Under the pieces are notes generated by a model. That model was not told the DNA's origin, ran no database searches, and saw only the letters and a program-made list of their open reading frames with translations. Shown here one piece after another: positions 33,210 to 63,032 of a DNA stretch of 63,032 nt; positions within the stretch are counted from its first letter, which is position 1, and the number at the start of each line of letters is the position of its first letter. The DNA is from an uncultured Lentisphaerales bacterium (GTDB taxonomy: Bacteria; Verrucomicrobiota; Lentisphaeria; JABSQK01; CAJWLW01), in NCBI GenBank assembly GCA_964460215.1, contig CAYWQM010000015.1:1-63032 (forward strand), given 5' to 3'. The translations under genes were made by a program, and so were the position numbers.

Positions 33210-33306
33210 GGGGCGGCGGACCGGATGGGGGCGTGGGGGACGAGGCGGCGGTTGAAAAAAGCACAGTCATGCAGCAATGCAAAGATAGAGCTTTTCGAGC
33301 TGCCAA

Positions 33307-43656: not shown

Positions 43657-43757
43657 TGACCGGTCTGCGAATTGCCTTTGCCCAATGGGCCTGGCTATCT
43701 CCAGCCCCGAGATGGTGTGACGGCAGAGCAAGTCTTCCGGCAACCCTCCCGGTGCGA

Positions 43758-44354: not shown

Positions 44355-44469
44355 CCGGTTTGGCCCTTGGATTGGACGTTTGATTCTCGCGGCAACTATA
44401 TTACTGGTGTTGTTGTCAAACTGTTACACACGGCAGCTGCAGTTGCCAGAACTTGCCACACGGTTTCAT

Positions 44470-45399
44470 GTGAAGCTCATAACCGATACAAAACTCGACC
44501 TCATTCGCCAGGGTGACCTCGACGTTCTCGTTGAGTTGGACCGGCATGGGTTGCTCATGGGGCCCGGTGAGACGGTGGCGGCTTTTGCCGAGCGTCTGGA
44601 GGCTCTGCGCGGCAACATGCAGGAGTTCACGTCGGAAATCGACGCAGCCGGGGAAGTCGAAGTTTTCGACATTGCATTGGAAAAGTCCAGCACCATCCCC
44701 CGCGATGCCTTTCGCAGTGCACAGCAATTGACGGGTGAGCTATACGATTTTGAAATCGACTGGGTGCCGGGCTTCTATACCAACAAGCGCATGGGCCTGC
44801 TTTTTGCAGGTTGTGCATTGTACTCTTCCGACGATTACTTCGCGCTCTTCATCGTGCGCAAGGCGTTCGAAAAAAAGGAGCGCTGGCTGATCTACAGCCG
44901 TACTGAGTTGCTGGCGCACGAGCTTTGTCATATCGCGCACATGGGATTCAATGTCGTTGACTTTGAAGAAATGTTCGCGTACCAGACGTCACCGAGCCGT
45001 TTTCGTCGGGCGATCGGCGGGCTGTTCCGTACGCCGATGGATTCGTACGCTGTTCTGGGGTCGACATTTCTCCTGGCCGGCGCGCAGATCGTCAACCGGC
45101 TGTATCTGGGGATGGTGCCGATTTATCAATTCCCGATTTCTTTGTTCGCGATGATTGTGATTGTCTGTTTCGGTGTCGTAGGTGGCCGTTACCTGAAGAG
45201 CCTTAGCATATACGGTCGCGCCCGGGCACGGTTGCGCGAACTGGTTGATGAGGTGCCGGCCCGAGCTATCCTTTTTCGCTGCAGCGGTGCTGAAATTCGG
45301 GAGATCGCGGATACCGCGGAGCCGCGGGCCTGGTTGGCGGCCCGGGCGGAACAGGACATCCGCTGGCGGGTGATTTTGCACAAATACCCGATTCGCTGA
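44470..45399 (+). CDS. Hypothetical membrane-associated zincin-like protein
   Basis: YSRTELLAHELCHIAH...FEEMFAYQTS (HExxH plus a downstream E); two TM helices. Confidence 0.65.
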   Translation: MKLITDTKLDLIRQGDLDVLVELDRHGLLMGPGETVAAFAERLEALRGNMQEFTSEIDAAGEVEVFDIALEKSSTIPRDAFRSAQQLTGELYDFEIDWVPGFYTNKRMGLLFAGCALYSSDDYFALFIVRKAFEKKERWLIYSRTELLAHELCHIAHMGFNVVDFEEMFAYQTSPSRFRRAIGGLFRTPMDSYAVLGSTFLLAGAQIVNRLYLGMVPIYQFPISLFAMIVIVCFGVVGGRYLKSLSIYGRARARLRELVDEVPARAILFRCSGAEIREIADTAEPRAWLAARAEQDIRWRVILHKYPIR

Positions 45400-45422
45400 A
45401 AGCGGCCATTATGCGATCTGCA

Positions 45423-46226
45423 TTATTCGGCCTTTGCACTTTCCCATTTCTGAGACCAGGTCGGGAGCTTTGTCTGCAAATCCGGTGCGTTCTGCTGTTT
45501 GCATGCTACGGCAAACCAGAACTCGCCGCACAATGCACTTACAGAAGTCATTGTTTGCTGCAGTTCTTTGGCGGCTGATGTTTTTTTCAGGTATTTTTCA
45601 TAGCAGTGAATCTTGTATGCCGTAGCGAGCCAGGTTATCGGGAACAACAATGGGTACAGCAGGAACGACTTGAACTTGTACACCACGGCAGTGAACTCCA
45701 TGAGTTGAAGACTGTGGGATCGGAGCTGATACAGAAAGGTTGGCAAATGCGGCGGGTAGTTGTGGAATGCAAAGGCATATTCGCGGGGCACGTCGAAGCC
45801 GATAAATGCCCTTTTCGCCTTGACGAATCCGGTCAGGAAGAAGTGCAGTCGGGAGGCCAGTCGCGTAGTGTTTTGTGTCATGACAATGACGTGGCCGTTG
45901 TCAGTGCATACGCGGGCAAGTTCGCTTAACGCATGGTCATGGTCGCTGAGGTGCTGGATGACGTCGAGCAGCAATACGGCGTCGAATGAACTGTCTTCAT
46001 ACGGCAGTTCACTCAGGATATCGATGCCGTTGTCGATGTCAAGATCTGCGATGACGCCTTCGTATTTCGTGAAGTTTGTGCCCTTGACCCGATACCCCTG
46101 TTGTTGAAGAGCGTTCAGCACCTCCCCGCTGCCACAGCTGATTTCGAGTATGCGGCTGCCGTCCGGCACATATTTGCAGACCAACTCAACTGATTTGGCT
46201 TTTCGGGTTTCACTGGATTTTGACAT
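45423..46226 (-). CDS. Class I SAM-dependent methyltransferase (type 11)
   Basis: ILEISCGSG, LPYEDSSFDAV, DVIQHL, LARV. Confidence 0.85.
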   Translation of the reverse strand: MSKSSETRKAKSVELVCKYVPDGSRILEISCGSGEVLNALQQQGYRVKGTNFTKYEGVIADLDIDNGIDILSELPYEDSSFDAVLLLDVIQHLSDHDHALSELARVCTDNGHVIVMTQNTTRLASRLHFFLTGFVKAKRAFIGFDVPREYAFAFHNYPPHLPTFLYQLRSHSLQLMEFTAVVYKFKSFLLYPLLFPITWLATAYKIHCYEKYLKKTSAAKELQQTMTSVSALCGEFWFAVACKQQNAPDLQTKLPTWSQKWESAKAE

Positions 46227-47075
46227 GGAGCATAGCCGGGGTGTTGGGGCTGTTTTTTTATCTTCCAGGGACGGTTATATCTGCCGGATCGCAGTTATGG
46301 AACCCACAGAGTTGAGCAAAATACACTCAAAGGAAGACCCTTTGCAAGGAATTCCGCGGGCGTATGCGCGTTTCAGGCAATTAAAACGTATGGAAATACT
46401 GTGTACAGTTGGGGTTTTAACGACAATTCATATATTGCCGTCGTTGACCACCGCCACCCGATATCTGCGCACTAAGGGGCGAGATCTCATGCCCGTCTAT
46501 TGACACAACGCTATTCTGCTGCGAGTCGCTCCTGCCGTACTATGACAATCTGTCAATGTATTCCGTAGAGGGAGAAACTGTTTTTTTGCCGTTGTGGCGT
46601 TGGTATGAGTGGACGATTGTCATTCTCTTTCGGACTTCACCAGTCGTGATGCCTGGGACATAGGTGGCTGCTGCCATTTTTGGAGGTCTCCCGAAACCCC
46701 ATCGTTGCGTTGATGTTCGTGAGGATATTGCATTGCCTGTCGCTGGTTCTGTTGACCGTAATGCATCGGATCAAGTATATTACGGATTGCAGCGATAGAG
46801 TACGGTTTGTTCCTGGCACGCTGATCTGATCAGTGCTAGCAAAAAGTCCAGAGCCCCGGAGGCGCGATAGTGGTCGGTCAGCGAATCATTTTGATGTGGT
46901 CGCTTCGGCGCCAATGTGGTAGATGAGGCGCCAGCCCGAGCCATCCTTTCCACTTAGTGACGCTAAAATTCGGGAGATTGGTATATAGCGGAGCCGCCAG
47001 CCGGGTTTTATGGGATCCTCCAAACTTGCTAACGCCTATTTTTTCCGTTTTCCCTGATTAGTTTTATACCTAAAG

Positions 47076-48023
47076 GTGCTGAGGAGAGTACATCGATGCT
47101 TATTTCATACACCCGCGCCAAACTTATGCAATGGTTTCCTCGCCTGCGCCGCGGCAGTAAGCGGAAGGCGTATTGCCTCTGCCAGCGTAAGGTCTGACGT
47201 GCGCGGAATCGATAGCATCCGGGCTGACTTGCCGATCGAATTGTCGTCCGGGATGACTACGCGTTGGCTCCTCAGTGATCGATGCTGGACCGTTGCTGCG
47301 TCAGCTGTTGATGCGCACCTGCAGGGGGTTGCCGGCAATTTTACGATCGAGCAACTCAAGGCTGCAGCCAACCGCGATATCTTTCGGTGCAGTGTCATCG
47401 ATTCGGCGGTGCGTGTTATCGTGAAAACCTTTCCGATGCGTACGCTCAAGCAGAAGCTCTACTGCTATAAGCGGTACGGTCCGAGCGAAGCGAGAAACCT
47501 TATTACTGCACGTAAGCGTGGACTACAGGTCCCGGCGATTTACGGATTCGGCTAGGTGAAGCGTGGGTTGCTGGTCAAACGGACGATGGTCTTGATGGAG
47601 GATCTTCAGGATTTTTCGCCACTCAGCGTCATCGAGAACGTCAATGGTGAGGATGCCAAAATGATGATGTTGCGCCCCGTCGCAGATGCGTTGCTATCTC
47701 TGTATGTCGCTGGCTGCAATCACATTGATCTCGGTGCCGAGAATATTTTTGTGAGTGATGCGGTCCCGGTGGATGTGCGTCTCATCGATTTCATGTACGC
47801 GGCATTCCTGCCCGCGCCCAGCACTACGGTGCTGGCGTTTCAGGCAGCCTATGTCAGCGACAGTCTTCGCTGCCGGGGGGTTGCGGAATCGACATGCCGT
47901 CAATGGGCCGTAGACTTGTTCAGTAGGAACGAAGTGGACGCTGAGGTCGAGGGACTGATTGAGAAATACGACAACTTCCGGGGCTCCCGTCTTTCCCGAA
48001 AGGAGCGTCTGGCACTCGCGTGA
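47076..48023 (+). pseudogene. LPS/Kdo-kinase (WaaP/InaA-like) family protein interrupted by in-frame TAG at 47553
   Basis: VIVK, EARNL..GLQVP..YGFG*VKRGLL..LMEDL, HIDLGAENIF, LIDF. The two track ORFs abut in the same frame. Start uncertain. Confidence 0.72.
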
Positions 48024-48082
48024 GTGCTGGCGAGGGTCGGTGTTCTATACTGGTGAGATGTGAGGTCAGCTATCGATGCAGT

Positions 48083-49096
48083 TCACCGTCGTAGCAGAAA
48101 AACCCGGCGTCCATCCCTTGCCAGCCCGATCTCTTTCGAGTCATTGAAACACGAACGCTCAAGAATGAAGGCGATGAACTCCTCTTCCTCCATGTTCTTG
48201 TAAATCTCGGGTTTGTCGAGTTCCTCGAAACGATGTGGTTCGAAAAACATGTACGCTGCATCCAGTCGTCCCAGCAACCCGCAGAACTTCTCCAGCATCG
48301 CTGGGTCACGAATAAAATGATGAAAGATATTCAGCCCGAGAATAAGATCGTACGTCAGCGGTCCGGGCAGGTCAAAGATGCTCGATTCGATGAACTCAAA
48401 CGACCGGTTCATGGCGCGCCTGAGTCGCTTGATGAACAGTGCGTTTTTCGAATTGTGATCGACCGCCGTGCACTTCAACCCGAGTCTTGTCATCACGTGG
48501 GACCAGTATCCCCAGTTTGCTCCGATATCCAGGACTGTGCCGTTGGTGATCGGCATGTGCGGCGCTATTAATTCGAGGCGCTCATCGCCGTGACCGTAGG
48601 GGGCGCGGATTAGATCCGGATGATGGATCTTTTGGTAGACCACGTTGCGGTGGGCACCAGCGAAATTGAGTACCTGATTGCGGAAGCGCTGCCACTGTGG
48701 ATGCACGAACGCGATTCGTACAGGGATTTCATTCGTAGCAGTGTCGAGCCTTATCAGCTGTTGTTCACCGGTGACAACAATCGGATCGCCGTCCCGGCCG
48801 ATCGCCAGTGTAACAGGCGATTCGCTCTGTACATCGTCGGATTCCGCATGCCCGTCACTTGCGAGTCGACGTTCTAACCTGTCCCAGTCACCTTTCAGTA
48901 CATCCGTTTTGCCGATCGCTGCCGTTGCCATGTCACGAAAGGCGTTGGGAATGCCGTATTTTAGTTCGTGCGGATTGGCGCTGCCCAGATTGTCTATGTG
49001 GAAGCACTCGTCTTTTCGGAATCGGAACTCCGTTCGCTTTTTCCACAACGAATATTTGATCGACATATTCATGCCTCCAGCAGGATGCATGAACAC
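48083..49096 (-). CDS. SAM-dependent methyltransferase with N-terminal degenerate ParB/Srx-like region
   Basis: VLDIGANWGYW, YDLILGLNIFHHF, MFFEP; N-terminal LAIGRDG...IPVRIAFVHPQW. Confidence 0.75.
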   Translation of the reverse strand: MFMHPAGGMNMSIKYSLWKKRTEFRFRKDECFHIDNLGSANPHELKYGIPNAFRDMATAAIGKTDVLKGDWDRLERRLASDGHAESDDVQSESPVTLAIGRDGDPIVVTGEQQLIRLDTATNEIPVRIAFVHPQWQRFRNQVLNFAGAHRNVVYQKIHHPDLIRAPYGHGDERLELIAPHMPITNGTVLDIGANWGYWSHVMTRLGLKCTAVDHNSKNALFIKRLRRAMNRSFEFIESSIFDLPGPLTYDLILGLNIFHHFIRDPAMLEKFCGLLGRLDAAYMFFEPHRFEELDKPEIYKNMEEEEFIAFILERSCFNDSKEIGLARDGRRVFLLRR

Positions 49097-53635: not shown

Positions 53636-53861
53636 GTTCTTCCTTCGATTTTGATGGGAGAGAAAAAACCGTCTTTGGCTCGGTCGCGGGGTTCGGTGAA
53701 TCAGCCCCTGGTGAAATAGGCATAGTATGCGTGAACGCACAGACACTAATAGTGTTGGCTATTACTTTCAAAGCATGGTCGGATTCAGGCGGTCGCGAGT
53801 CGGCGTGCGATTGACTGCCGGTTGTTGTTGCCATGTTGTCTTTAATTTCGGTGTGTGCGTT

Positions 53862-54620
53862 CTACGCTTCTCGGACTGCCTTTGCAACGTCGCCCAGCAA
53901 TCGGTACAACATTGTCGCGGGTTCGCCAGCGCAGATGAAATGGTAGCCTTCCTTGCGTAGTGTGACAGCGTCGCCGATGCGCCACATTGCTTTTCCGGCG
54001 TTGTCAGCGGCAGCCCTGAGCAGGATCATAGCGTCCTTATGCTTCGGATGATCCGGGTCCCAGAGGACGCCGAGCCTGGCGGCAAGGTCGTAAGGGCCGA
54101 CGCCCAGCGCGGTGACGATTTCGTGCTGCGCGATCGCATCGACGTTGTCGAGACCCTTCAGGCTCTCGATCTGCGGAATAATGATCAGGTCATCCTCGAC
54201 TTCCGTCTTCCAGTTGTCGTAGTGAAAGTCGCTCACCCACATGTTGCCGGAGCCGCCTGGCCGTCGATTGCCGCGTGGCGGCATGTAAATTCCCTGCTGC
54301 ACTTCGTCGAGCATCGCGGTATCTTCGATCATCGGCAGCAACAGTCCGCATGGCCCGAGGTCCATAACTGTGCGGATCGAGTTGACATCGGTCTTTTGCG
54401 GCCGGACCAGTATTGGGAAATCAGCCATACGCCCGATTGCACAAATGTCGGCGACCAGCGCGTGGCCGTGGTCCTTGTGTTCCAGGTCGGCGATCAGATA
54501 GTCATAGCCCTGGGCGATCGCGGCCTCCACGAGTTCGACCCACAGGTGAAACGTTGCCAGCAAGCCGATCGTCGGTTCCGTGTTACTGAGTTTCTCCTTG
54601 AGAATTTTTGCTGCCTTCAT
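53862..54620 (-). CDS. HpcH/HpaI aldolase family protein
   Basis: DLEH, LVRP, PRGNR, PQIES, VGPYDL. Confidence 0.9.
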   Translation of the reverse strand: MKAAKILKEKLSNTEPTIGLLATFHLWVELVEAAIAQGYDYLIADLEHKDHGHALVADICAIGRMADFPILVRPQKTDVNSIRTVMDLGPCGLLLPMIEDTAMLDEVQQGIYMPPRGNRRPGGSGNMWVSDFHYDNWKTEVEDDLIIIPQIESLKGLDNVDAIAQHEIVTALGVGPYDLAARLGVLWDPDHPKHKDAMILLRAAADNAGKAMWRIGDAVTLRKEGYHFICAGEPATMLYRLLGDVAKAVREA

Positions 54621-54755
54621 CTAACGATGCCCCATTCGGGTGTGTTTAGAGAATCAATGAAAAGTTGTTATTCTTCCCAAAAGTAAACGAACTACAACAG
54701 TATCGAGCGTTGATTGAATATCCACCGAAACTTGCCATCAAGAGCTTCAGGGACA

Positions 54756-54783
54756 TTGGCACACATGGCATCTGCTGTATAGT
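54756..54783 (+). promoter_or_regulatory. Putative sigma70 promoter of the methyltransferase operon
   Basis: TTGGCA-N16-TATAGT; GGAGG RBS at 54803 before ATG 54812. Confidence 0.5.
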
Positions 54784-54811
54784 AAGGGTTGCGCTTGATA
54801 ACGGAGGTTTC

Positions 54812-55441
54812 ATGTCCCAAACGCTTGATATTGGAAAACGCATCGAACTTGTCTCGATGGATCGTCATTTTCACGACATTTCCTTGGGCTTGTACTGCCT
54901 GGACGGAGCTGATGGTGCCGAATTCCTGGTGCACAGCTACAGCAGGCTTGCGGGAGTCTCTGAGCGTGTTGCGTTCGTTGTCGAGGCGATGAAAACCATG
55001 GGGGGGCTTGTTGCTGCTGAAGAGGGGCGCCTGCGGTTCCCCTGCGGGAGTGAACACAACCGTGGCGTGCGCCGGGTTTTTCTGGACATTTGCAAGCTGG
55101 CTCCCGATGAGCCGCCGGCCGCTCGGGAACTCAATGTTTTTGATCAGAACGCCGATGCGACTGTCACAGTAACTTCAGTCGCCGGCGGTCGTTATACGTT
55201 TGCCGCGGACAAGGATAGTGACAAAGCAGCGATGCGCACCGGCGCTATCGCCAACGGCATTGTCAAGCTTGCCGAGACGATCTTGGATGACGATACCGCG
55301 GTCAGTTTTGAATGCGGTCATTGTCACGATGTTCTGGTTGCCCAGTTATTGCCGCGGGCAAATAATGTGCGTGCTGCGGTGCGCGAGCAGGAGGCAGCAG
55401 CAAACCGTGGCGTTTTGGCGGCACCGAGCCAACAGGAGTAG
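54812..55441 (+). CDS. Hypothetical protein with duplicated F-x-C-G-x2-H module (first gene of the corrinoid operon)
   Basis: RFPCGSEH and SFECGHCH; strong RBS; 5 nt gap to the next gene. Confidence 0.8.
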   Translation: MSQTLDIGKRIELVSMDRHFHDISLGLYCLDGADGAEFLVHSYSRLAGVSERVAFVVEAMKTMGGLVAAEEGRLRFPCGSEHNRGVRRVFLDICKLAPDEPPAARELNVFDQNADATVTVTSVAGGRYTFAADKDSDKAAMRTGAIANGIVKLAETILDDDTAVSFECGHCHDVLVAQLLPRANNVRAAVREQEAAANRGVLAAPSQQE

Positions 55442-55446
55442 GGGAT

Positions 55447-56484
55447 ATGGCAGAAGCAATCAAATCAATGACCAGTCGGCAGCGTGTAATGGCGGCTTTG
55501 AATCGGGAGCCGGTCGATCGCACCCCGGTCTGCAACCCGACGTCGGTGGCTACGGTCGAGCTTATGGACCTGGTGGACGCACCCTTTCCGCAAGCCAATC
55601 GGGAACCCGAGCTGATGGCGCGCCTGGCAGCCACCGGTTATACCGAGCTCGGGTTCGACACGATCATGCCCGTTTTTTCGATCATCCAGGAATCTTCCGC
55701 TATGGGATGCAAGATCCAGTGGGAACAGAAGGACAACTGGCCGACGGTCAAGATGCGTGAGCCCATCTGGGAAACAGCGGACGATATAAAGATTCCGGCT
55801 GACTTGTGCACACATCCCGATACGAAGTGCGTGACCGAGGCGATAAAAATTCTGCGCAAAGAATACGGTGACGAGGTGGCGATCATCGGCAAGACCATGG
55901 GGCCATGGTCGATGGGCTACCATTGTTTCGGTGTCGAGCCGTTCCTGCTCCTCTCCCTCGACGATCCGGGTAAGACCAAACTGTGCCTGGACCGTATGAA
56001 AGAGGCAACCGTCGATTTCGGCATCGCCCAGGCGGAAGCCGGTGCGGATGCCATAACGCTGCCGGATCATGCCACCGGCGACCTGGTCAGCGGCGAGTAC
56101 TATGAACGCTACCTGCGCGACCTGCATATAGAGTTTGCCGAGCGCATTCCGATCCCGATCATCCTGCACATCTGCGGACGTACTGTCGACCGCATGGACT
56201 ATATCGCGCAGACAGGGATGCACGCGTTCCACTACGATTCGAAGAACAAACCGGCGGAGTCCATGGCGATTGTCGGTGATCGCATTTCGCTGGTCGGCAA
56301 CATCAATAATCCGGAGACTCTCTTTTCGAAGGGGCCGGAGGAAGTGAGTGCCGAAGTCATAGAAAACCTCGATGCCGGCGTACAGTTGGTTGGGCCTGAG
56401 TGCGCCATCCCGCTGCAGACCGCTGTCGAAAACCTCAAAGCCATTCCTCGGACCGTACGTGACTGGCATAAGAACGTCGCCTGA
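55447..56484 (+). CDS. MtaA/CmuA-family (uroporphyrinogen decarboxylase fold) Zn methyltransferase
   Basis: MTSRQRVMAAL..VDRTP, GPWS, ILHICG (HxC), LVGNIN, GPECAIP. Confidence 0.92.
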   Translation: MAEAIKSMTSRQRVMAALNREPVDRTPVCNPTSVATVELMDLVDAPFPQANREPELMARLAATGYTELGFDTIMPVFSIIQESSAMGCKIQWEQKDNWPTVKMREPIWETADDIKIPADLCTHPDTKCVTEAIKILRKEYGDEVAIIGKTMGPWSMGYHCFGVEPFLLLSLDDPGKTKLCLDRMKEATVDFGIAQAEAGADAITLPDHATGDLVSGEYYERYLRDLHIEFAERIPIPIILHICGRTVDRMDYIAQTGMHAFHYDSKNKPAESMAIVGDRISLVGNINNPETLFSKGPEEVSAEVIENLDAGVQLVGPECAIPLQTAVENLKAIPRTVRDWHKNVA

Positions 56485-56510
56485 ACAGCGACTCATGAAG
56501 GAGCTTCCGG

Positions 56511-57266
56511 ATGGCCGAGATCGGTGATATTGCCAACGCTTTCATACGCAGCGAGATCGAGGAGTTTATCGAGCGCCCCGAAGAGATCGAGCGCATGGTC
56601 AACATGTTCGCTGCCGCCAGTGAACGGATGCAGGATATCGCGGCGGCGCTGATCGACGGGGACAATACCACCTGCGACGAGCTGACCAAACTGGCTCTGG
56701 ACGATGGGGTCACTGCCCTTGAAGTCATGGACAACGGCTTGATCGCCGGCATGAGCATTGTCGGGATCAAGTTCCGCGAGAACTTTATTTTCGTCCCCGA
56801 AGTTCTGGCCTGCGCCCGTGCCATGAAGGCCGGCATGGCCTACATCGAGCCGATCCTTTCCGCTTCCGGCGTCGAGCCGATCGGCACAGCCGTCATGGGA
56901 ACGGTCAAGGGCGATTTACACGATATCGGCAAGAACCTCTGTATCATGATGCTGCGCGGCGCCGGTTTCATCGTTCACGATCTCGGCGTCGATGTTTCGC
57001 CCGATGATTTCATAGAAGCGATTGAAGAACACTCGGCGCCGTTGCTGGGGATGTCCGCGTTGTTGACGACGACCATGCCTAACATGGGATTGACGATCGA
57101 GGCATTTATCGACGAAGGAATGCGCGACGACCTGAGAATCATGGTCGGCGGTGCACCGGTCACCCAGGAATTTGCCGATGACATGGGGGCCGACGGCTAT
57201 GGCAAGGATGCCATGGCCTGCGTCGAGCTGGCCCGCAGCCTGATGGCTGACATCAAAGCAGGGTAG
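56511..57266 (+). CDS. Corrinoid (B12-binding) protein, MttC/MtaC-like
   Basis: GLIAGM..VG..F, FVPEVL, GTVKGDLHDIGKNL, SALLTTT, MVGGAP. Confidence 0.96.
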   Translation: MAEIGDIANAFIRSEIEEFIERPEEIERMVNMFAAASERMQDIAAALIDGDNTTCDELTKLALDDGVTALEVMDNGLIAGMSIVGIKFRENFIFVPEVLACARAMKAGMAYIEPILSASGVEPIGTAVMGTVKGDLHDIGKNLCIMMLRGAGFIVHDLGVDVSPDDFIEAIEEHSAPLLGMSALLTTTMPNMGLTIEAFIDEGMRDDLRIMVGGAPVTQEFADDMGADGYGKDAMACVELARSLMADIKAG

Positions 57267-57270
57267 GTTC

Positions 57271-57537
57271 ATGGTTATGGAAAAGATTGATCCTGAAGAG
57301 TACCAGAAACGGCTTGACCGGATAACGGAAATCTTCAGCGGTATTGTCGAACAGTCTGATGTGCAGTCCACTCGCCGTTGTCCGTACCGTGACCGGCTGG
57401 ACCGATGCACCGCGAAGTTCGGCTGCCAGAACCAGCGCAAGCCGCTCGAGAAAGGCGGCCTGCGTCAATGTGGCGGCGACGACAAGATCGACTATCGCAG
57501 TGCCTGGGAGACCGATGCGCCGGAAGAGGCGGAGTAG
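57271..57537 (+). CDS. Small four-cysteine hypothetical protein
   Basis: RCPYRDRLDRCTAKFGCQNQR...QCGGDDK; tightly packed in the operon. Confidence 0.75.
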   Translation: MVMEKIDPEEYQKRLDRITEIFSGIVEQSDVQSTRRCPYRDRLDRCTAKFGCQNQRKPLEKGGLRQCGGDDKIDYRSAWETDAPEEAE

Positions 57538-57614
57538 ATCCGGTCTGTTTTTTGAAGTTCAACAAGTCCCGAGTGTCGTATGGCACTCGGGATTTTGCTT
57601 TATCTGAGCGAAAT

Positions 57615-59246
57615 ATGGCAAAGGCGACATACAACAAAGCTACCTGTGATGTGATGCCTGGGAAGACTGTTTTCGATCATGCCGACGCACTCGATCTCGC
57701 ATTGCCTACCACGTGCGGTCGCCAGGGGCAGTGCCACGAATGTATCGTCGAGGTGGAAGAAGGCATGGACTGCCTAAACAAGCGGACCGGCAGCGAGGAT
57801 TTTCTCAAGGAAAACTACCGGCTCGCCTGTCAGGCCGTCGTCACCGATGAGACCTCGGACCTCAAGATTGCGCCGTTGCATCAGAGCCCGAGGATCCTCA
57901 GTGCCAGCCGCGAAAAAGCTTCCGAGTTCGACCCCATCGTCACCCGCATCGGCGATGTCGTCTACTACGACGGCGAGGAGATCGACACCTACCGCGGTCA
58001 CATGTACGGCCTTGCCATGGACCTGGGCACAACAACTGTCGTTATGGCGCTGATGGATCTTGAGACCGGCAGGGCGGTGACTGTCAGCTCTTTCGAGAAT
58101 CCCCAGAAGTTCGGCGGCAGCGATGTGATGCATCGCATTTCCTACGACCGCGATTTCCGTGGCAAGCTGCAGCGAGTGATTGTTCAGACGATTAACCACG
58201 AAATCAGGGAAATGGGGCGGCGCCTCGGGTTTAAGCGTCAGGAAATCTATGAGATCGTTGTTGTCGGCAACTCGACGATGCGTGACATGTTGTTTAAGTA
58301 CGATGTGCAGCCTATCGGGCAGCGGCCTTATCGATCGACAACCGAAGTCGACGTTCTCGAGGGGCGGCGCCAGACCACTGCGGTCACTGAGAAGGCGAGG
58401 GCACTCGGTTTGATGACAAATCCGAAGGCACTGATCTACGGTCTGCCGCTGGCCTCCGGTCACGTTGGTGCCGACGTCGCTGCCGACCTTTTGGCGATCG
58501 ACGTCGAGGCCCGTGAGGAATGCTTCATGCTGATCGACGTCGGAACCAATACCGAGGTTGTGATCGGCTATCAGGGGCGTATGATGTGCGCCTCCTGCCC
58601 GGCAGGGCCGGCCTTTGAAGGCGGACTCGTAAAGTATGGCATGCGCGGCGGCGACGGCGCCATCGAGTCAATACACTGGGCGGATGATCAATGGGCTTAC
58701 AATACCATTGGCGATGTGCCGCCCATGGGGCTCTGCGGTTCCGGGCTGATCGATCTGCTGGCGGATTTGCGTTGCCGTGATGTGATGACTCCCAAAGGGG
58801 TTTTTCAGGACAAGCAGTATGAGCTGCCGATCGTCCCGGACCATGGCATTACCCTGTCCCGAGAAGATGCCAGTAACCTCGCCCAAGCGAAGGCAGCAAG
58901 CTATTGCGGACAGTACATTGTCATGCGGACATTCGGGGTTGGTCCGGGCGATATCGACAAACTGTATCTGGCGGGCGGCTTTGCGAATTATCTTGATGTT
59001 GCCAACGCCGTGGCGATTGGTTTCCTGGCGCCAGTGCCTGAAGAGCGCGTTGTGAAAATCGGCAATGCTGCTGTCCACGGGGCTATGGAAGCGATGATGT
59101 CAAAGCGCAAACGGCAGGTGATCGATGAATGCCTGCGCAAAATAGAACATATCGAACTGGAGACTACGCCCGACTTTTTCGAAGTTTTCGTCGAGGCTTG
59201 CCAGTTCAAACCAATGCCGGCGGAGCTCGTCGTCAATCCGGGCTGA
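57615..59246 (+). CDS. ASKHA-domain reductive activator of corrinoid proteins (RACo-type) with N-terminal 2Fe-2S domain
   Basis: CGRQGQCHEC...RLAC; DLGTT, DVGTNTE, GPAFEG, GLCGSG, LAGGF. Confidence 0.93.
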   Translation: MAKATYNKATCDVMPGKTVFDHADALDLALPTTCGRQGQCHECIVEVEEGMDCLNKRTGSEDFLKENYRLACQAVVTDETSDLKIAPLHQSPRILSASREKASEFDPIVTRIGDVVYYDGEEIDTYRGHMYGLAMDLGTTTVVMALMDLETGRAVTVSSFENPQKFGGSDVMHRISYDRDFRGKLQRVIVQTINHEIREMGRRLGFKRQEIYEIVVVGNSTMRDMLFKYDVQPIGQRPYRSTTEVDVLEGRRQTTAVTEKARALGLMTNPKALIYGLPLASGHVGADVAADLLAIDVEAREECFMLIDVGTNTEVVIGYQGRMMCASCPAGPAFEGGLVKYGMRGGDGAIESIHWADDQWAYNTIGDVPPMGLCGSGLIDLLADLRCRDVMTPKGVFQDKQYELPIVPDHGITLSREDASNLAQAKAASYCGQYIVMRTFGVGPGDIDKLYLAGGFANYLDVANAVAIGFLAPVPEERVVKIGNAAVHGAMEAMMSKRKRQVIDECLRKIEHIELETTPDFFEVFVEACQFKPMPAELVVNPG

Positions 59247-59258
59247 TCGGAGTCTGTC

Positions 59259-60896
59259 ATGGTCGAAGAACCTCAAAAAACTGCAAGTCCAAGCGGCGCC
59301 TGGAACAAGTCTTCGTTTCGAGCACTGCTGCAGGATGCCGACACCTTTGTTCACTGTGTAGAGCTGGTGACTTCGCGTGGGCTGATCACGGAACGCAGCG
59401 GTCGTCGCGTGCTGAAGGTGGCTCGTCAACTCGTCGAGCATCCTGACATTCATGCGCTCAGCATCACGGACAATGCTGGCGGCAACCCGATGATCAATGC
59501 CGACACGATGGGCACCGACCTCATTTCGCGTGGGCAGGAAGTGATCATCCATCTCTCGTGCAAGGACTGGAACCGCAATGCCCTGCAGGGACGTGCCTGG
59601 CAGCTGTCGAGCGACGGGTTCCGAAATATCCTGGCCCTGTCAGGCGACTGTCCCGTTGGCGGTTATCATGGCCAGGCCAGTGGCGTTTTCGACATTGATT
59701 CGGTTGGCCTGCTGCAAATGCTGAAGGAGATGAACGATGGCGGGCCGGTGGATAGTGGCAAGCCGCCGGCGCAATCTACCGAGCTTTTTCTAGGCGCTGT
59801 CGTTACCAATCACAAGAAGCTGGAGAACGAGGTGATGCCGCAGTACTTCAAGCTGGCAAAGAAAGTCCGTGCCGGTGCCGAGTTCATCATTTCGCAGATC
59901 GGCTATGATGCCCGCAAGCAGGATGAATTGATAAAGTATATGCAGATGCACAATCTGAACGTGCCGTTGGTCGGCAACGTCTACGTTCTGGGCGCCCGTG
60001 CGGCCCGCTATTTTCACTCCGGAAAAGTGCCTGGCGTCGTCGTCACCGACAAGCTCATGCAGCTGGTCGAGAAGCACGCTGCCGACGCGGACAAGGGAAA
60101 GTCCTTCTTCCTGGAATTCGCTGCGATGCAGTGTGCAATCCTCAAGGGCCTGGGGTATCGGGGCGTATATATCGGCGGTCATCTCACCTACGACGATTAC
60201 GCGCTTGTGCTCGAACGCGCCGCCAGTTACAGCGACACCGATTGGAAAACTTTTGCCGGCAACATCTGCTACCAGCAACCCGATGAATTCTTCTATTTCG
60301 AGCAGAATACGATGACGCGTCTCAACACGACGACGGTCAATCGGCTGTACAAGCGCTCCAAGGATGCGGCGATGGTCGACCAGTCTCGCCGCCGTGCCCC
60401 GATCACGTATCGCCTCAATCGAGTCCTGCACGACAAGGTATTCGAGCGCGGCACTATGGGGTTCAAGGCAGCCAGGAAAATCAGTGAGGTTGTCGACAGG
60501 GCGCCCGCTGTCATTAAAAAAATTGTCCACGGCGCCGAGCATGTCGCCAAGATCGCGACTTTCGACTGCCGGGACTGTGGTGATTGTTCACTGCCGGAGA
60601 TTGCGTACCTCTGTCCAGAGTCGCAGTGCGCCAAGAACCAGCGTAACGGTCCTTGCGGCGGTACTCGCCAGGGGAAGTGCGAAGTCGGTGAGAAGGAATG
60701 TATCTGGGCTTTGGCGTACGATCGCCTGAAAGCCTATGGTGAGGAGGAGACAATGCTTGATGGACCGGTTGTCATCAAGAACGGTGCCCTGGAGGGCACC
60801 AGTGCCTGGGCCAACCGGTTCCTCGAAAGGGACCATCAGGCAGACGACAGCGAGACAACGCCGGGAGCCGGCGTTGACAAGAAATCCAACAGTTGA
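59259..60896 (+). CDS. metF: Methylenetetrahydrofolate reductase fused to C-terminal MetV-like Cys-rich domain
   Basis: ITDNAGG, HLSCKDWNR, LALSGD, KKVRAGAEFIISQ; CRDCGDC..CPESQCAKNQRNGPCGG..CEV..CIW. Confidence 0.9.
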   Translation: MVEEPQKTASPSGAWNKSSFRALLQDADTFVHCVELVTSRGLITERSGRRVLKVARQLVEHPDIHALSITDNAGGNPMINADTMGTDLISRGQEVIIHLSCKDWNRNALQGRAWQLSSDGFRNILALSGDCPVGGYHGQASGVFDIDSVGLLQMLKEMNDGGPVDSGKPPAQSTELFLGAVVTNHKKLENEVMPQYFKLAKKVRAGAEFIISQIGYDARKQDELIKYMQMHNLNVPLVGNVYVLGARAARYFHSGKVPGVVVTDKLMQLVEKHAADADKGKSFFLEFAAMQCAILKGLGYRGVYIGGHLTYDDYALVLERAASYSDTDWKTFAGNICYQQPDEFFYFEQNTMTRLNTTTVNRLYKRSKDAAMVDQSRRRAPITYRLNRVLHDKVFERGTMGFKAARKISEVVDRAPAVIKKIVHGAEHVAKIATFDCRDCGDCSLPEIAYLCPESQCAKNQRNGPCGGTRQGKCEVGEKECIWALAYDRLKAYGEEETMLDGPVVIKNGALEGTSAWANRFLERDHQADDSETTPGAGVDKKSNS

Positions 60897-60907
60897 GGGG
60901 AAGCAGC

Positions 60908-61939
60908 ATGAGTGTACAAGATCGCCGGGACAATTTTATAATCATCGGCGAAAACATTCACACCACCCGTATCGTTTTACGCAAGGGCCGGTTCGTTGTC
61001 CAGGGGGAGGACGGTGCAGAGCGTATTCGTTTTACGACGCCGGATGGTGACCGCTTTTTGAATGTGCCGGAGAAAATGCAGCGTTCAGCAGACTTCGAAG
61101 AGGGGCGGGTCAAGTATGTCCAGGCCGGTATTCATGCCGCCATGTCGGACAACGCCGAGGAGGTTGAACTCGGCATGGCTTTCCTGCAGAACATGGTGCG
61201 GCGTCAGGTCGAAGCTGGTGCGAACTTCCTCGATCTCAATGTCGACGAAATTTCGATCCGCCGGAAGGAGCAGGAAGCGGCGATGCGTTGGTTGGTGCCG
61301 ACCATTGCCGGCATGTGCGATACGCCGCTGTCGATTGATTCCTCATGAATCGGGACGATTGCTGCAGGACTTGAAGCCGCCGACAGCGATCGTCCGGTGA
61401 TGCTTAATTCAGCTTCGCTGGAACGCCTCGATGCACTTGACCTGGCTGTGCAGTACAACTGCCACGTCATTGCTACCGCAGCCGGCTTTGATGGCATGCC
61501 GCAGAACACGGAAGAGCGCGTTGCCAACGCTTCGCAGGTTGTCGATGCCGCTGTTGATAAAGGGATTCCACTGAATCGCATCTACATCGATCCGCTCATC
61601 TTTCCGATCTCCGTGGATGCTGAGTTCGGCATTCATTGTCTCGAAGCGATTCGACAGTTACGTGAGAAGTATGGGGCGGAGGTACACATAAGCGGTGGCT
61701 TCAGCAATGTCTCCTTTGGTATTCCAGTGCGGCGTTTGGTGAATGACGCCTTCACGAATCTGGCTGATGATGCGGGTGCCGACAGCGGCATCATCGATCA
61801 TGAGACCAGTCCATTAGAGCGTGAGTTTTCGGCCGATCGCGAGTCCGGGCCGTACAAGCTGGCCGAGAGCATGTTGCTGGGGAACGATGAGTTCTGCAAG
61901 ACCTATCTGAAGGCCTTTCGCGCCGGTGAGCTCCAGTAG
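60908..61939 (+). CDS. AcsE/MeTr-like methyltetrahydrofolate:corrinoid methyltransferase (pterin-binding domain) with in-frame UGA at codon 147 (recoded or pseudogene)
   Basis: IIGENIH, QVEAGANFLDLNV, PLSIDSS*IGTIAAGLE, MLNS, IDPLIFPI, GGFSNVSFG. The same frame continues across TGA 61346. Confidence 0.85.
61349..61398 (+). other. Stem-loop immediately 3' of in-frame UGA (SECIS-like)
   Basis: ATC(G)GGACGATTGCTG pairs with CAGCGATCGTCCGGT (15 bp including 2 G-U, one bulge); small inner hairpin GG(A)CT-TGA-AGCC. Confidence 0.5.
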
Positions 61940-61965
61940 GTTCGGCGTGGGCGCAGCGGCTGGGG

Positions 61966-62736
61966 TTATGGTACTTCGTGAACTGCCCAGGCATTGTGAT
62001 CGCTCGTCTGCTGGCTCCAGCCCGTGTGTCCGTCGCCGTAGAGAAGGTTGAACCCGTCGTTGTGCTGGTAGCCCACCTTGCGGTCGCTGGTGGTGCCGTT
62101 CAGGCTTGAGTTGACCTTGCCGTTGCCGTTCTGGTCCAATTGCCCGTGGTCGGTCTGGTCGAATCGCTGGATGGCGATCGAGGAAGATGGCGAGGAAAAC
62201 TGGGCGTTGGGCGAATCCACGATAAGTATTTTTGAGGAAATATCGGTGATTCGATTGAAACGGACCGGGTAGGTACTGTTGTCTGTCGTCCAGCCGAAAG
62301 TTGTTGTCGGCATGAACCCCGTCAGCGTGGCGCCGGCCCATCTCGCCCCTGACGTGCCGGGTGCGATTGCATTCATGATGTAGGTCGCATCGGTGAGCTC
62401 ATTATATTTTCCCTGGCCACCGAATGGATTAAACATATTGGCCTGGTCGACGGCGGGGCAGCGCACAAAATCCGCGTCTTGTCCGGCAAGATCCACGTAC
62501 AGATAGTTCAACCAATGGCCGACTGGATCATCAGGTTGCACCGGGAACAGGAAACCCTCGTTGTCGGCGGCATACATCTGAGCCGAGGTCCCGAACTGCT
62601 TGAGGTTCGACATGCATTTTATGCCCACGGCTTTTGCTTTTGTCTTATTGAGTGCCGGCAGCAGCATGGACGCCAGGATGGCGATGATGGTAATCACCAC
62701 CAATAGTTCGATCAACGTAAATCGTTGTGATCGCAT
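61966..62736 (-). CDS. Prepilin-type N-terminal cleavage/methylation protein (DUF1559-like) with H-X9-DG motif
   Basis: [44 protein letters not shown]. Confidence 0.92.
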
Positions 62737-63032
62737 TGAACGCGTTCCTGGAAGGCACGGGTTTCCGGGTGCTGGAGATGATGTGGCGCCGTGGCAATAA
62801 CTATGGGGGCGGGCGATTCGATTGCAACTGGCGTATAGGAATCGTCTTTTTTCGTCGAACGGTCGACGCGGCCAACGCTCAACTCAGTGCTATTGCATAT
62901 CGAACATCTGCCCATGGCATGAAGAGCGCGAGAAAGCATTAGGGCTATTCAAATGTCACAGTAGTTCCCAGGCTCATCACCACATAGCCTTTGCCGTACT
63001 CGAATTCCACTGCATTGATATAACGTTGCCTG

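Follow-up and report, generated by a model that had tools for sequence, protein, structure and literature searches.

A Lentisphaeria operon that probably links a split methionine synthase to an MtaA-like zinc methyltransferase with an undescribed partner protein

Introduction

The closest described hub to the locus analyzed here is that of marine Rhodobacteraceae. In the accessible parts of the two reports on it, Phaeobacter inhibens has a three-part MetH and a RamA-like protein (Price et al. 2018, PMC5764234), and in Ruegeria pomeroyi MtgC and MtgD have a dual function and MetF2 is adjacent (Mausz et al. 2025, PMC12478193). S-methyltransferases of the UroD superfamily carry a His-Cys-Cys site and the O-demethylases swap out the Cys residues, a rule taken from the available sections of one preprint (PMC10418091). 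In the dichloromethane mec cassette, MecF is an MtrH-family protein and the marine gene order is mecBCFGHE (10.1101/2021.08.30.458270). The operon described here, found in a marine Lentisphaeria genome, probably links a split methionine synthase to an MtaA-like zinc methyltransferase with an undescribed partner protein.

Results

The window, i.e., the whole 63,032-nt stretch of DNA that was analyzed, holds seven co-directional ORFs (g1 to g7) on the + strand at 54812-61939, and all of them lie where an earlier note, made from the sequence alone, had placed them. The gaps between them are 5, 26, 4, 74, 12, and 11 nt; the lower bound of the range given before (4-77 nt) was right and the upper one is 74. 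The gene names are backed by Pfam and NCBIfam profiles, which agree with the enzymes named earlier for URO-D, B12, RACo, MTHFR, and Pterin_bind, and g1 to g6 are intact and single-copy in the source genome. A sigma-70-like promoter candidate, TTGGCA-16 nt-TATAGT (54756..54783, +), lies 29 nt 5′ of the g1 start and matches the consensus at 10/12 positions. The single promoter-like element proposed for the operon can thus be located, but such sites are not enriched, with 6 across the region versus 3.8 +/- 2.2 in shuffles. Between g4 and g5, a stem-loop of 14 bp that ends in a T-rich tail (57564..57595, +) looks like a terminator or a processing site. Only 0.05-0.07 of the sampled words were present in five RNA runs.

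A total of 336 loci were confirmed, the best 80 were kept, and synteny was scored on the 67 whose sequence extends 9 kb or more downstream from g1. Gene order was colinear in 67/67 loci from at least 8 phyla, and the objection that the genes might not be co-conserved elsewhere therefore falls. Within these 67 loci g2 was present in 65, g3 and g4 in 52 each, g5 in 49, g6 in 34, and g7 in 33. The carriers are Poribacteria, Latescibacterota, Bryobacterales, Gemmatimonadota, Alpha- and Betaproteobacteria, Ca. Moanabacter, and Lentisphaeria; the loci come mainly from sponge-symbiont MAGs, and the module is common to many sponge-symbiont and seawater bacteria. Since g1 was found in 0/200 other sampled genomes of the source's phylum, the cluster is patchily distributed and was probably transferred, and it is not a PVC feature. 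In 15 Poribacteria loci g1 (13 also with g2) occurs without g3-g7. All five tested Poribacteria genomes with such a lone g1/g2 locus have g3-g4-g5 at a second locus and also a 1229-1266-aa MetH-like ORF, so the system is kept even with MetH. Judged by this gene arrangement, g1-g2 is a module separate from the hub g3-g7.

A GntR/FCD regulator lies divergently upstream in 44 of the best 80 of the 336 loci and is the conserved neighbor in the other phyla. The upstream aldolase and sialidase-like (BNR) genes, once offered as a hint to the substrate, are neighbors in 3 Lentisphaeria loci only. Many loci are flanked by housekeeping genes (LipA, MnmG, CtpA), which fits a biosynthetic role equally with a catabolic one. 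No transporter gene was found among the conserved neighbors, which fits a small permeant substrate.

The first gene, g1 (54812..55441, +), encodes a 209-aa protein of an orphan family that matched no Pfam or NCBIfam family. It has two alpha/beta half-domains, each bearing one F-x-C-G-x-x-H (FPCGSEH and FECGHCH), which confirms the two CGxxH motifs read before; C78, H82, C168, and H172 are invariant in 20/20 aligned homologues, and the C-terminal tail RGVLAAPSQQ is conserved. There were 97 homologues found, and a search of 1.84 billion proteins returned 280 representatives at E<=0.001, none of them a fusion of g1 with a URO-D protein. The AF2 model is confident (pLDDT 89.4, pTM 0.86) and had no Foldseek match at E<=0.001, the best VIA Z being 6.8. 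We conclude that g1 is a real new component, undescribed before. The second accessory protein for which novelty had been suggested, g4 (57271..57537, +), proved to be of another kind. This 88-aa module, in which four Cys (C37, C46, C52, C67) are invariant, matched no Pfam or NCBIfam family and its AF2 model reached a pLDDT of only 68, but it is fused to RACo in 40/59 loci (separate in 18, off the locus edge in 1). It is the counterpart of an N-terminal RACo activase domain, separately encoded here. Both g1 and g4 may bind metal.

The product of g2 (55447..56484, +) is an MtaA/CmuA-family zinc methyltransferase of the URO-D fold. It scores 217 bits against PF01208 (URO-D) and, at 254.3 bits, exceeds the TIGR01463 (MtaA/CmuA) cut-off of 235.4, and it stays below the NCBIfam equivalog cut-offs for MtaA (238.5 vs 400) and MtbA (198.1 vs 600). 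Among solved structures it comes closest to the CoM methylase MtaA (4ay7, E 3.2e-54), and the HxC and C motifs of the two line up. The zinc set His241-x-Cys243...Cys319 is invariant in 18/18 aligned sequences, and the median identity to non-Lentisphaeria orthologues is 82%. The source genome is a 197-contig MAG, 94.6% complete, so that the absences of MttB, DUF1638, and MetH reported here mean not found rather than proven. A search limited to MttB found none in the cluster or in the genome, and g2 is therefore the only substrate-facing candidate, as the earlier note had argued. Because the His-Cys-Cys site is invariant and the closest solved relative methylates CoM, the sequence points to a sulfur or selenium ligand, and it speaks against the O-methylated sugars that had been listed among the substrates.

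A catabolic demethylase for methyl halides, in the manner of CmuA, or for O-methyl compounds (methylated sugars, methoxy-aromatics) would also be consistent with g2 passing the MtaA/CmuA cut-off, and URO-D MT I, corrinoid protein, pterin MT II, and RACo together have the layout of a four-component O-demethylase. The lack of a transporter suits volatile methyl halides, MetF accompanies the cmu genes, and halogenated and methoxylated metabolites occur in sponges and seawater. However, g2 lacks the fused corrinoid domain of CmuA, and the aldolase and BNR neighbors are confined to the 3 Lentisphaeria loci. The characterized chloromethane MT I, CdmB, neither has nor needs zinc according to the accessible part of its description, and O-demethylases reportedly lose the Cys ligands that are invariant here (available sections of PMC10418091). 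We consider this alternative improbable.

The genes g1 and g2 adjoin, with the g2 match starting <=150 nt past the g1 end in 65/75 loci, and their products are predicted to bind each other. Modeling of the complex gave ipSAE values of 0.77, 0.82, and 0.82 against 0.00 for the best of 3 controls, with a partner pLDDT >=84 and a contact agreement >=67%. The mark used was reached by 58/80 solved complexes and 2/110 mismatched pairs, counts that are only rough because our own alignments were used. The predicted interface comprises residues 2-26 and 42-46 of g1 and residues 37-46 and 323-331 of g2, beside the zinc ligand C319, and on both proteins it lies within invariant stretches.

The remaining genes encode the hub proteins. 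The corrinoid protein g3 (56511..57266, +) has a B12 cap (B12-binding_2) and a Rossmann domain (B12-binding), with GDLHDIG as its DxHxxG motif in the translation. It is the sole B12-binding protein over the cut-off in the source genome and scores 202.6 bits against the NCBIfam MtgC model NF047996, below the cut-off of 370. A RACo/RamA-type ATP-dependent reductive activase for corrinoid proteins is encoded by g5 (57612..59246, +; the ORF opens at 57405); it consists of a 2Fe-2S ferredoxin domain (Fer2), a middle domain, and an ASKHA C-terminal domain (PF00111, PF17651, PF14574), and its 292 bits against the AcsV model are below the cut-off of 800. The methylenetetrahydrofolate reductase g6 (59259..60896, +), with a MetV-like C-terminal domain (MTHFR_C) fused on, scores 60.5 bits against PF02219 and 93.1 bits against PF12225; it is the top MTHFR match genome-wide, with one distant paralogue on contig C107. 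The last gene, g7 (60908..61939, +), encodes a MeTr/MtgD-like methyl-THF:corrinoid methyltransferase (82.5 bits vs PF00809 when read through its one TGA), the sole pterin-binding protein in the source genome apart from FolP.

MetH was not found in the source genome. Full-length MetH occurs in 8/8 sampled genomes of the same order versus 0/3 of the source's own family, which has split pieces only; among five cluster-bearing genomes of other phyla it is full-length in 2 and absent from 3. Contig C49, unlinked to the operon, encodes a 332-aa homocysteine S-methyltransferase (PF02574) that is 63% identical to the gene after g7 in one Poribacteria locus. A gene for this enzyme trails the cluster in 13 of the best 80 of the 336 loci, and the enzyme is also present in all five of the other cluster-bearing genomes that were checked. 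The operon thus probably serves as the split methionine synthase of the source organism, with g3, g7, RACo, and MetF probably its only B12-dependent methionine synthase core.

The missing MetH of the genome and its family could also mean that g2 itself methylates homocysteine and that the operon amounts to no more than a split methionine synthase, reactivated by RACo and supplied with an MTHFR of its own. The role of g1 would then be that of a helper, for example a zinc chaperone or an analogue of DUF1638, which was not found in the source genome. The His-Cys-Cys site would suit a thiol such as homocysteine, and 82% conservation is what a core enzyme would show. On the other hand, the source and the five other genomes have the dedicated PF02574 enzyme, the source copy being orthologous to the cluster-linked one; full-length MetH coexists in the 5/5 Poribacteria and 2/5 other genomes; and g1 contacts g2 in the best-run predicted interface and has no link to the activase genes. 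This account has only a small chance of being right.

The TGA in g7 (61346-61348, +; context SIDSS*IGTI) means that the operon is not complete as assembled, contrary to what had been claimed, and that the hub may be broken in this assembly. It is private to the source assembly: the contigs of 3/3 other runs covering the place have T at 61348 (TGT), as does the nearest relative, and the same-genus counterpart is an uninterrupted 347-aa ORF. Stop codons occur in 0/37 homologous matches of the N-part and 0/35 of the C-part; in the 35 matches spanning the column the residues are N 28, K 2, S 2, C 1, Q 1, and D 1. These findings would also suit a true nonsense mutation in an operon that is decaying or misassembled here and no longer a working unit. 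We regard that as very improbable, since g1 to g6 are all intact and present once, and losing its sole folate methyltransferase should be costly for a genome that lacks MetH. Besides, a single-base assembly or consensus error would look identical, and so would selenocysteine read-through, for which the genome has selA, selB, and tRNA-Sec. A stable hairpin with a 12-bp stem (61353..61395, +) begins 5 nt past the TGA (-25.5 kcal/mol; z -2.9 over 60 nt and -3.65 over 81 nt), and its sequence recurs in runs X2 and X7, whose contigs have TGT.

Discussion

We favor, at somewhat better than even chances, the reading that the operon is a split methionine synthase or Mtg-type hub with one substrate-specific methyltransferase, g1-g2, which passes methyl groups from a methyl-S or methyl-Se donor to methionine and the folate C1 pool. 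In this hub, g3 would be the corrinoid protein, g7 would exchange methyl groups between it and THF in both directions, g4+g5 would act as the ATP-dependent reductive activase, and g6 would be the MTHFR. With the homocysteine S-methyltransferase of C49, the hub would convert CH2-THF to CH3-THF, then to CH3-Co(III)-g3, and then transfer the methyl to homocysteine, giving methionine. As a heterodimeric zinc-dependent MtaA-type enzyme, g1-g2 would strip the methyl off a small methylated sulfur compound and load Co(I)-g3; candidate donors are methanethiol, dimethylsulfide, methylmercaptopropionate or another methylthio-acid, or the selenium analogues. From g3, the methyl would go to homocysteine or, via g7, to THF and then, via g6, to methylene-THF, so that g3 and g7 would have a dual use.

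The reaction could also run in the biosynthetic direction, with g7 loading g3 from CH3-THF made by g6, and g1-g2, like MtaA acting on coenzyme M, moving the methyl from CH3-Co(III)-g3 to a thiol or selenol that is not homocysteine; sulfide or methanethiol, giving a volatile methyl sulfide, or a thiol cofactor could be the acceptor. MtaA, the nearest characterized relative of g2 (MtaA 238, MtbA 198 bits), runs that way, the operon includes MetF, the flanks are housekeeping genes, and the conserved neighbors include neither catabolic nor transport genes. Nevertheless, this direction is unlikely: in MtgBCDE, the closest described hub, the extra methyltransferase is on the donor side and the adjacent MetF2 oxidizes methyl-THF, the divergent GntR/FCD regulator suggests induction by a metabolite, and the neighborhood shows no acceptor-forming pathway.

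Our preferred reading, with a donor-side g1-g2, comes closest to the split MetH/MtgBCDE-RamA-MetF2 systems of the Rhodobacteraceae. As far as the available parts of the sources describe them (PMC5764234, PMC12478193), these share with our locus a free-standing corrinoid protein, a bidirectional pterin methyltransferase, a ferredoxin-domain activase of the RamA/RACo type, a MetF paralogue adjoining the pterin enzyme, a homocysteine S-methyltransferase that is often unlinked, genomes without MetH, and an extra donor-side methyltransferase that plugs into the shared corrinoid protein. That extra enzyme is the MttB-family MtgB there and a URO-D protein of the MtaA/CmuA type plus g1 here, where, in addition, DUF1638 was not found, the activase has the 4-Cys g4, and MetF is fused to MTHFR_C. 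Because there is no MttB-family MtgB and g3 is below the NF047996 cut-off, glycine betaine is not an expected substrate.

The soluble CoM methyltransferases of methanogens (MtaA/MtbA/MtsA/MtpA) and the type 1 mlp clusters of bacteria, in the accessible sections of their description (Kountz & Balskus, PMC10418091), share an MtaA-like His-Cys-Cys URO-D enzyme, encoded in the mlp clusters beside a corrinoid protein and a RACE/RACo activase, and methyl-S/Se chemistry is inferred on both sides. According to the same sections, an mlp cluster encodes 2-3 Mlp paralogues but lacks an H4folate methyltransferase, and such clusters are reported from obligate anaerobes only, whereas our locus has one URO-D enzyme with MeTr, MetF, and g1 and occurs in marine and sponge-associated lineages. 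The four-component O-demethylases of acetogens and Desulfitobacterium likewise share all four roles with our locus, and the superfamilies too: MT I is a URO-D enzyme, MT II binds pterin, the activating enzyme is of the RACo type, and the fourth part is a B12 protein. The zinc ligands here are instead of the S-type, no sign of aromatic metabolism is seen nearby, and g1, g4, and MetF-MetV are extra. The chloromethane CmuAB/MetF and anaerobic dichloromethane mec systems also use a first methyltransferase of the MtaA/CmuA family, MetF being linked in cmu, and neither has a described g1 counterpart; the mec cassette, to which the earlier note likened the operon, departs from it in having an MtrH-family enzyme on the folate side and another gene order. 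The same note had feared that the cluster might be just a split methionine synthase module or a known operon, and this is half true: g3, g7, RACo, and MetF match an already known hub, but the g1-g2 pair is not part of it and is what is new.

Organization of the operon

The seven co-directional open reading frames (ORFs) that an earlier note had placed at 54812-61939 were borne out. All of them, g1 to g7, lie on the + strand, are separated by gaps of 4 to 74 nt, and occur as single copies in G000, the genome to which the window belongs. The first, g1 (54812-55441), had no match in Pfam or NCBIfam. It is followed by g2 (55447-56484), assigned by both databases to the URO-D/MtaA-CmuA family, by the corrinoid protein g3 (56511-57266), which has a B12 cap and a B12-binding domain, and by the four-cysteine module g4 (57271-57537), again without a match in Pfam or NCBIfam. 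The remaining genes are g5 (57612-59246), a RACo activase with ferredoxin, middle, and ASKHA domains; g6 (59259-60896), a fusion of MTHFR with the MetV-like C-terminal domain PF12225; and g7 (60908-61939), a pterin-binding methyltransferase that carries an in-frame TGA at 61346-61348. The g5 ORF opens at 57405, and the domain boundary indicated by fused orthologues is the ATG of 57612. The single promoter-like element reported in front of the operon is present at 54756-54783, but the region is not enriched in sites of this kind. A search of positions 53800-63032 against Rfam gave nothing at E ≤ 1, neither a riboswitch nor a SECIS family. Genes for an aldolase of the HpcH family and for a BNR protein lie upstream of the operon in divergent orientation. 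Other genes of the window appear unrelated to the operon: downstream, one for a prepilin-type N-terminal-methylation protein (61966-62736) and, upstream (42433-49096), those for a GT87-family glycosyltransferase, two SAM-methyltransferases, and a 778-amino acid TPR protein.

Distribution and synteny

When one genome of each prokaryotic species was scanned, 336 loci with relatives of g1 were identified. The best 80 of these 336 loci belong to Poribacteria (39), Latescibacterota (17), Alphaproteobacteria (6), Bryobacterales (6), Gemmatimonadota (4), Lentisphaeria (3), Ca. Moanabacter (1), Betaproteobacteria (1), and unnamed bacteria (3). The carriers seen were uncultivated MAGs throughout, and the closest g1 homologues (86-96% identical) come from MAGs labelled as Lentisphaeria. 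DNA near-identical to the window was found in 20 public sequencing runs from 12 studies, all labelled as seawater, marine, or marine plankton metagenomes. The earlier note had framed the cluster in terms of PVC bacteria. This framing does not hold since g1 was found in none of the 200 other genomes sampled from the window's phylum, while its loci are scattered elsewhere; for the same reason, the cluster is patchy in distribution and was probably spread horizontally.

The proteins of the window were compared by tblastn with the best 80 of the 336 loci, and counts were taken from the 67 that extend 9 kb or more past g1 on the downstream side. The gene order was colinear in all 67, confirming that the operon genes are conserved together elsewhere. 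Within this set g2 was present in 65 loci, g3 and g4 in 52 each, g5 in 49, g6 in at least 34, and g7 in at least 33, the last two numbers being lower bounds because some loci stop short of g6 and g7. The median identity to non-Lentisphaeria orthologues was highest for g2 (82%) and g3 (78%), followed by g5 (63%), g6 and g7 (62% each), g4 (59%), and g1 (49%). The anatomy of the cluster is well supported.

Several neighbors recur among the best 80 of the 336 loci. A divergent GntR/FCD regulator adjoins the cluster in 44 of the 80, representing seven phyla. A stand-alone PF02574 homocysteine S-methyltransferase follows g7 in 13 loci, and in 20 a 93-amino acid PF13769 ('Virulence_fact') protein is encoded directly 3′ of g7 (e.g., L021:19736-20017); the carriers of the latter are Poribacteria, Latescibacterota, Gemmatimonadota, and Moanabacter, and it is absent from the window. 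A CobW/ZigA-like metallochaperone GTPase found after g7 in two alphaproteobacterial loci (L004:9509-10375 and L007:6152-7033) would be consistent with a role in supplying the system with zinc or cobalt. In 17 loci, for example in Poribacteria, a PhyH dioxygenase gene separates g5 from g6, and in 12 such a gene lies downstream, a recurrence that may be due to chance in PhyH-rich genomes. The remaining neighbors examined were mostly housekeeping genes or lineage-specific enzymes. The aldolase and BNR genes of the window recur only in the three Lentisphaeria loci among the best 80, and a functional link to them was dropped since they adjoin the cluster only in this class. An APH-family kinase is encoded upstream of the GntR regulator in 12 loci (including L010:8045-9052) from Latescibacterota, Gemmatimonadota, and Betaproteobacteria. 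Its sole NCBIfam match, weak and partial, is to S-methyl-5-thioribose kinase (MtnK), with 58.8 bits against a cut-off of 275. This MtnK-like kinase and the 2-hydroxyacid dehydrogenases near some loci are at most a hint of methylthio-acid substrates. No description of the gene set was found in the literature on corrinoid methyltransferases of Poribacteria and sponge symbionts, and the gene-neighborhood data of PMC12478193 and PMC10418091 may contain members of the cluster.

The split methionine synthase-type hub

The corrinoid protein g3 matched PF02607 (75.1 bits) and PF02310 (93.2 bits), has GDLHDIG as its DxHxxG motif, and is the only B12-binding protein over the cut-off in G000. When read through the TGA, g7 matched PF00809 with 82.5 bits, and its C-terminal part matched PRK07535 with 140.2 bits, below the cut-off of 259; it is the only pterin-binding protein of G000 apart from FolP. 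The activase g5 scored 219.6 bits with PF14574, 139.9 with PF17651, and 32.7 with PF00111, as a RamA/RACo-type activase in place of the activation domain of MetH. G000 has two weak MTHFR matches, of which g6 is the better, and no canonical high-scoring MetF was found in this genome. As G000 is 94.6% complete and consists of 197 contigs, absences are given here as 'not found'. A distant paralogue of g6, with 23% identity over 405 amino acids, is encoded by a 498-amino acid ORF at G000:C107:7588-8658. A three-part MetH together with a RamA-like protein was described in Phaeobacter (PMC5764234). Because their arrangement is the one described there, g3, g5, g6, and g7 are considered a split methionine synthase-type hub. 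The earlier note had allowed that the cluster could be just a split methionine synthase support module. This turned out to be the case for these four genes, and g1-g2 remain new.

In a class-level sample, canonical MetH (TIGR02082 over the cut-off) was found in none of the three genomes of the window's family, G000 included, which have split pieces only. The full-length protein was present in all eight genomes sampled from the same order. Five cluster-bearing genomes of other phyla were divided, three without and two with MetH. As for acceptors of the methyl group, contig C49 of G000 encodes a 332-amino acid PF02574 homocysteine S-methyltransferase (33271-34209; 192.6 bits), which is 63% identical to the copy located after g7 in the Poribacteria locus L005. 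A dioxygenase of the PhyH family and a CN-hydrolase are encoded beside the C49 gene (L090). G000 also has three short ORFs of 356-372 amino acids that are MetE-like (PF01717; C63:22199-23182, C49:17665-18672, and C5:66771-67676), a size typical of 'core-MetE' enzymes. Such enzymes are reported to use methyl-corrinoids, and the three proteins could be further acceptors for methyl-g3. An unusual 579-amino acid fusion of homocysteine S-methyltransferase and SAM-dependent methyltransferase domains is also encoded in G000 (C31:42093-42962; L091:694-2433).

The small protein g4 had been regarded as a possible new accessory component. In 40 of 59 loci, the g4 match is the N-terminus of a single ORF of 625-675 amino acids that also includes RACo; 18 loci encode it on its own as a small ORF, and in one it falls off the locus edge. 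Therefore, g4 is an additional domain of the RACo activase, of a putatively metal-type, four-cysteine kind, here encoded apart; it is previously undescribed, as proposed, but not an independent component. Residues C37, C46, C52, and C67 and the frame RCPY...DYRxAW were invariant in 21 of 21 sequences. The AF2 model was confident in the N-terminal helix only, with a pLDDT of 50-67 in the Cys-rich part, too uncertain for a structure search; a fold that needs a metal would fit this model. A 14-bp stem-loop with a T-rich tail (57564-57595) lies inside the 74-nt gap between g4 and g5, at a position that corresponds to the continuous g4-RACo reading frame of other lineages. It may act as an attenuator or mark a site of mRNA processing.

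The in-frame TGA in g7

The operon had been described as complete, and the in-frame TGA at 61346-61348 in g7 had been missed. A peptide across this codon, if translated, would read SIDSS-U/C-IGTIAAGLEAADSDRPVMLNSASLER. One reading is that TGA encodes selenocysteine, and G000 does possess the machinery: selA (505.7 bits) and selB (323.7 bits) are adjacent on contig C12 (54642-58083) and a tRNA-SeC is encoded at G000:C83:19072-19167. A 12-bp hairpin, a candidate SECIS-like element, starts 5 nt past the TGA and extends to 61395 (z -2.9 to -3.65). The same hairpin is found unchanged beside TGT in the sequencing runs X2 and X7, and the z value at the same place in a 92%-identical relative is -0.97. 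In 35 homologous matches, the TGA column holds N in 28, K in 2, S in 2, and Q, D, and C in one each, the sole Cys belonging to the nearest Lentisphaeria relative, where the codon is TGT. The contigs of all three runs covering the position (three studies, 97.3-99.5% identical) have T at 61348. No stops were present in the other g7 homologous matches (0 of 37 for the N-terminal part, 0 of 35 for the C-terminal part), and a genome of the same genus has an uninterrupted g7 ORF of 347 amino acids. No second TGA-bearing copy was seen. Since the covering runs read TGT, the same-genus ORF is intact, and the homologues are free of stops, the TGA is private to this assembly. It more likely reflects an error in the consensus or a nonsense variant at strain level, and its reading as selenocysteine is quite improbable.

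The g1-g2 module

At E ≤ 0.001, a search of 1.84 billion proteins gave 280 representatives of the g1 family. The relatives listed are about 200-260 amino acids long or fragments, with two exceptions of 345 and 359 amino acids that match only over the first ~140 positions, and none is long enough for a fusion to a URO-D domain. The AF2 model of g1 (pLDDT 89.4, pTM 0.86) consists of two beta3-alpha-(FxCGxxH)-alpha halves. The evidence for an internal duplication is confined to the model's secondary-structure pattern; BLASTP produced no alignment between the halves. Foldseek found no match to the model in the PDB at E ≤ 0.001, and a search of the ESM Atlas gave no usable match. In a wide search with VIA-align, the KipI-like domain from urea carboxylase ranked first with a Z of 6.8, ahead of HIT, ACT, and BMC domains. 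Because this value is within the background range quoted for the tool, these candidates were rejected and no fold was assigned. The g1 protein thus represents a compact orphan family, and its model has no convincing structural relative.

The g1 and g2 genes go together. In 65 of 75 loci, no more than 150 nt separate the end of g1 from the start of the g2 match. Fifteen Poribacteria loci have g1, accompanied by g2 in 13 of them, apart from the other cluster genes. All five such Poribacteria genomes compared have g3-g4-g5 at a second locus and also carry a MetH-sized ORF, indicating that the g1-g2/g3-g5 system is retained despite MetH. Prediction of the g1-g2 complex gave ipSAE values of 0.77, 0.82, and 0.82, and the best of three controls 0.00; this level was attained in 58 of 80 solved complexes and in 2 of 110 mismatched pairs, a calibration that is only approximate here because our own alignments were used. 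Partner pLDDT was at least 84 and contact agreement at least 67%. The predicted interface joins invariant stretches of g1 (residues 2-26 and 42-46) to residues 37-46 and 323-331 of g2, beside the putative zinc ligand C319. As a model score rather than a measurement, the prediction supports binding of g1 to g2.

The g2 protein scored above the cut-offs of TIGR01463 (MtaA/CmuA; 254.3 bits, cut-off 235.4), PRK06252 (261.1, cut-off 244), and PF01208 (URO-D fold; 217.1, cut-off 23.9). It scored below those of the MtaA equivalog NF040654 (methylcobamide:CoM methyltransferase; 238.5 bits, cut-off 400) and the MtbA equivalog NF041608 (198.1, cut-off 600). When g2 was compared by tblastn with 72,556 plasmids, no match exceeded 28% identity, most were to hemE, and no cmuA was obtained. 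The protein aligns over its full length with the CoM methylase MtaA (4ay7; E 3.2e-54), and its LHICG and GPECAIP segments match the HxC and C motifs of that enzyme, whose residues are presumably the zinc ligands of MtaA. The corresponding H241, C243, and C319 were invariant in 18 of 18 g2 orthologues. The ligand assignment in MtaA is backed by the text of PMC10418091, which also describes a His-Cys-Cys zinc sphere in UroD-superfamily S-methyltransferases and the replacement of one or both Cys in O-demethylases. CdmB, a characterized chloromethane MT I, is devoid of zinc (PMC13222342). Since His-Cys-Cys is invariant in g2, Cys is replaced in the O-demethylases, and CdmB is zinc-free, the sequence favors sulfur or selenium as the ligand rather than the O-methylated sugars listed among the earlier candidate substrates.

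Proposed reaction and its significance

In the pathway that we propose, g1-g2 would be a heterodimeric MtaA-type zinc methyltransferase linking a methylated sulfur (or selenium) compound to g3, which g4 and g5 would hold in the Co(I) state. The methyl group would be shuttled between g3 and THF by g7, g6 would interconvert methyl- and methylene-THF, and the unlinked PF02574 protein could pass the methyl group from g3 to homocysteine. The donor direction, from substrate to Co(I), is favored by analogy with MtgB of the Mtg system, and a metabolite-type regulator is conserved upstream. The reverse direction, in which g1-g2 would methylate a thiol, is less likely. No transporter genes were seen among the cluster neighbors examined, as might be expected if the donors are small and permeant, like methanethiol or DMS. 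That the substrate of g1-g2 is a methyl-sulfur or methyl-selenium compound is purely what we infer. To our knowledge, a cobalamin-dependent route for methyl-sulfur demethylation in aerobes has long been postulated and never identified. We tentatively suggest, as a possibility with the odds against it, that g1-g2 is a new two-subunit zinc methylthiol/thioether (or methylselenide):corrinoid methyltransferase with which aerobic marine and sponge-symbiont bacteria demethylate DMSP-derived methanethiol, DMS, and methylmercaptopropionate straight into methionine and the folate C1 pool by that route, g1 being a new fold that gates or completes the active site.

If this proposal is true, one conserved gene pair would mark an unrecognized B12-dependent route for methylated compounds of sulfur or selenium. 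Its carriers, 336 species-level genomes, are mostly sponge symbionts (Poribacteria, Latescibacterota, Acidobacteriota, and Gemmatimonadota) and pelagic bacteria. The role of split methionine synthases as demethylation hubs, a recent discovery, would be extended from N-osmolytes to another substrate class, the cobalamin demand already known in marine and host-associated communities would be added to, and a concrete, clonable candidate for aerobic methyl-sulfur demethylation would be available. Whatever the substrate, g1 represents an orphan family with a confident model and an unmatched fold that is predicted to contact an MtaA-type enzyme through a specific interface, and both g1 and the four-cysteine domain of the activase are straightforward biochemical targets.

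Comparison with known systems

The likeness to known enzyme sets proposed earlier stands in part. The cluster resembles the four-component O-demethylases, as well as the mlp clusters, in parts, and is unlike the cmu and mec systems. The mec cassette was dropped as a model, having a folate-side enzyme of another family and another gene order. Among known systems, the MtgBCDE/RamA/MetF2 split methionine synthase hub comes closest, and the cluster differs from it in four respects. DUF1638 (PF07796), the partner of RamA in Phaeobacter and Ruegeria, was not found in G000, and no MttB-type (PF06253) protein was found in the cluster or in G000. The activase includes a four-cysteine domain, and the place of the MttB-type donor enzyme is taken by an MtaA/CmuA-type enzyme to which a new partner, g1, has been added.
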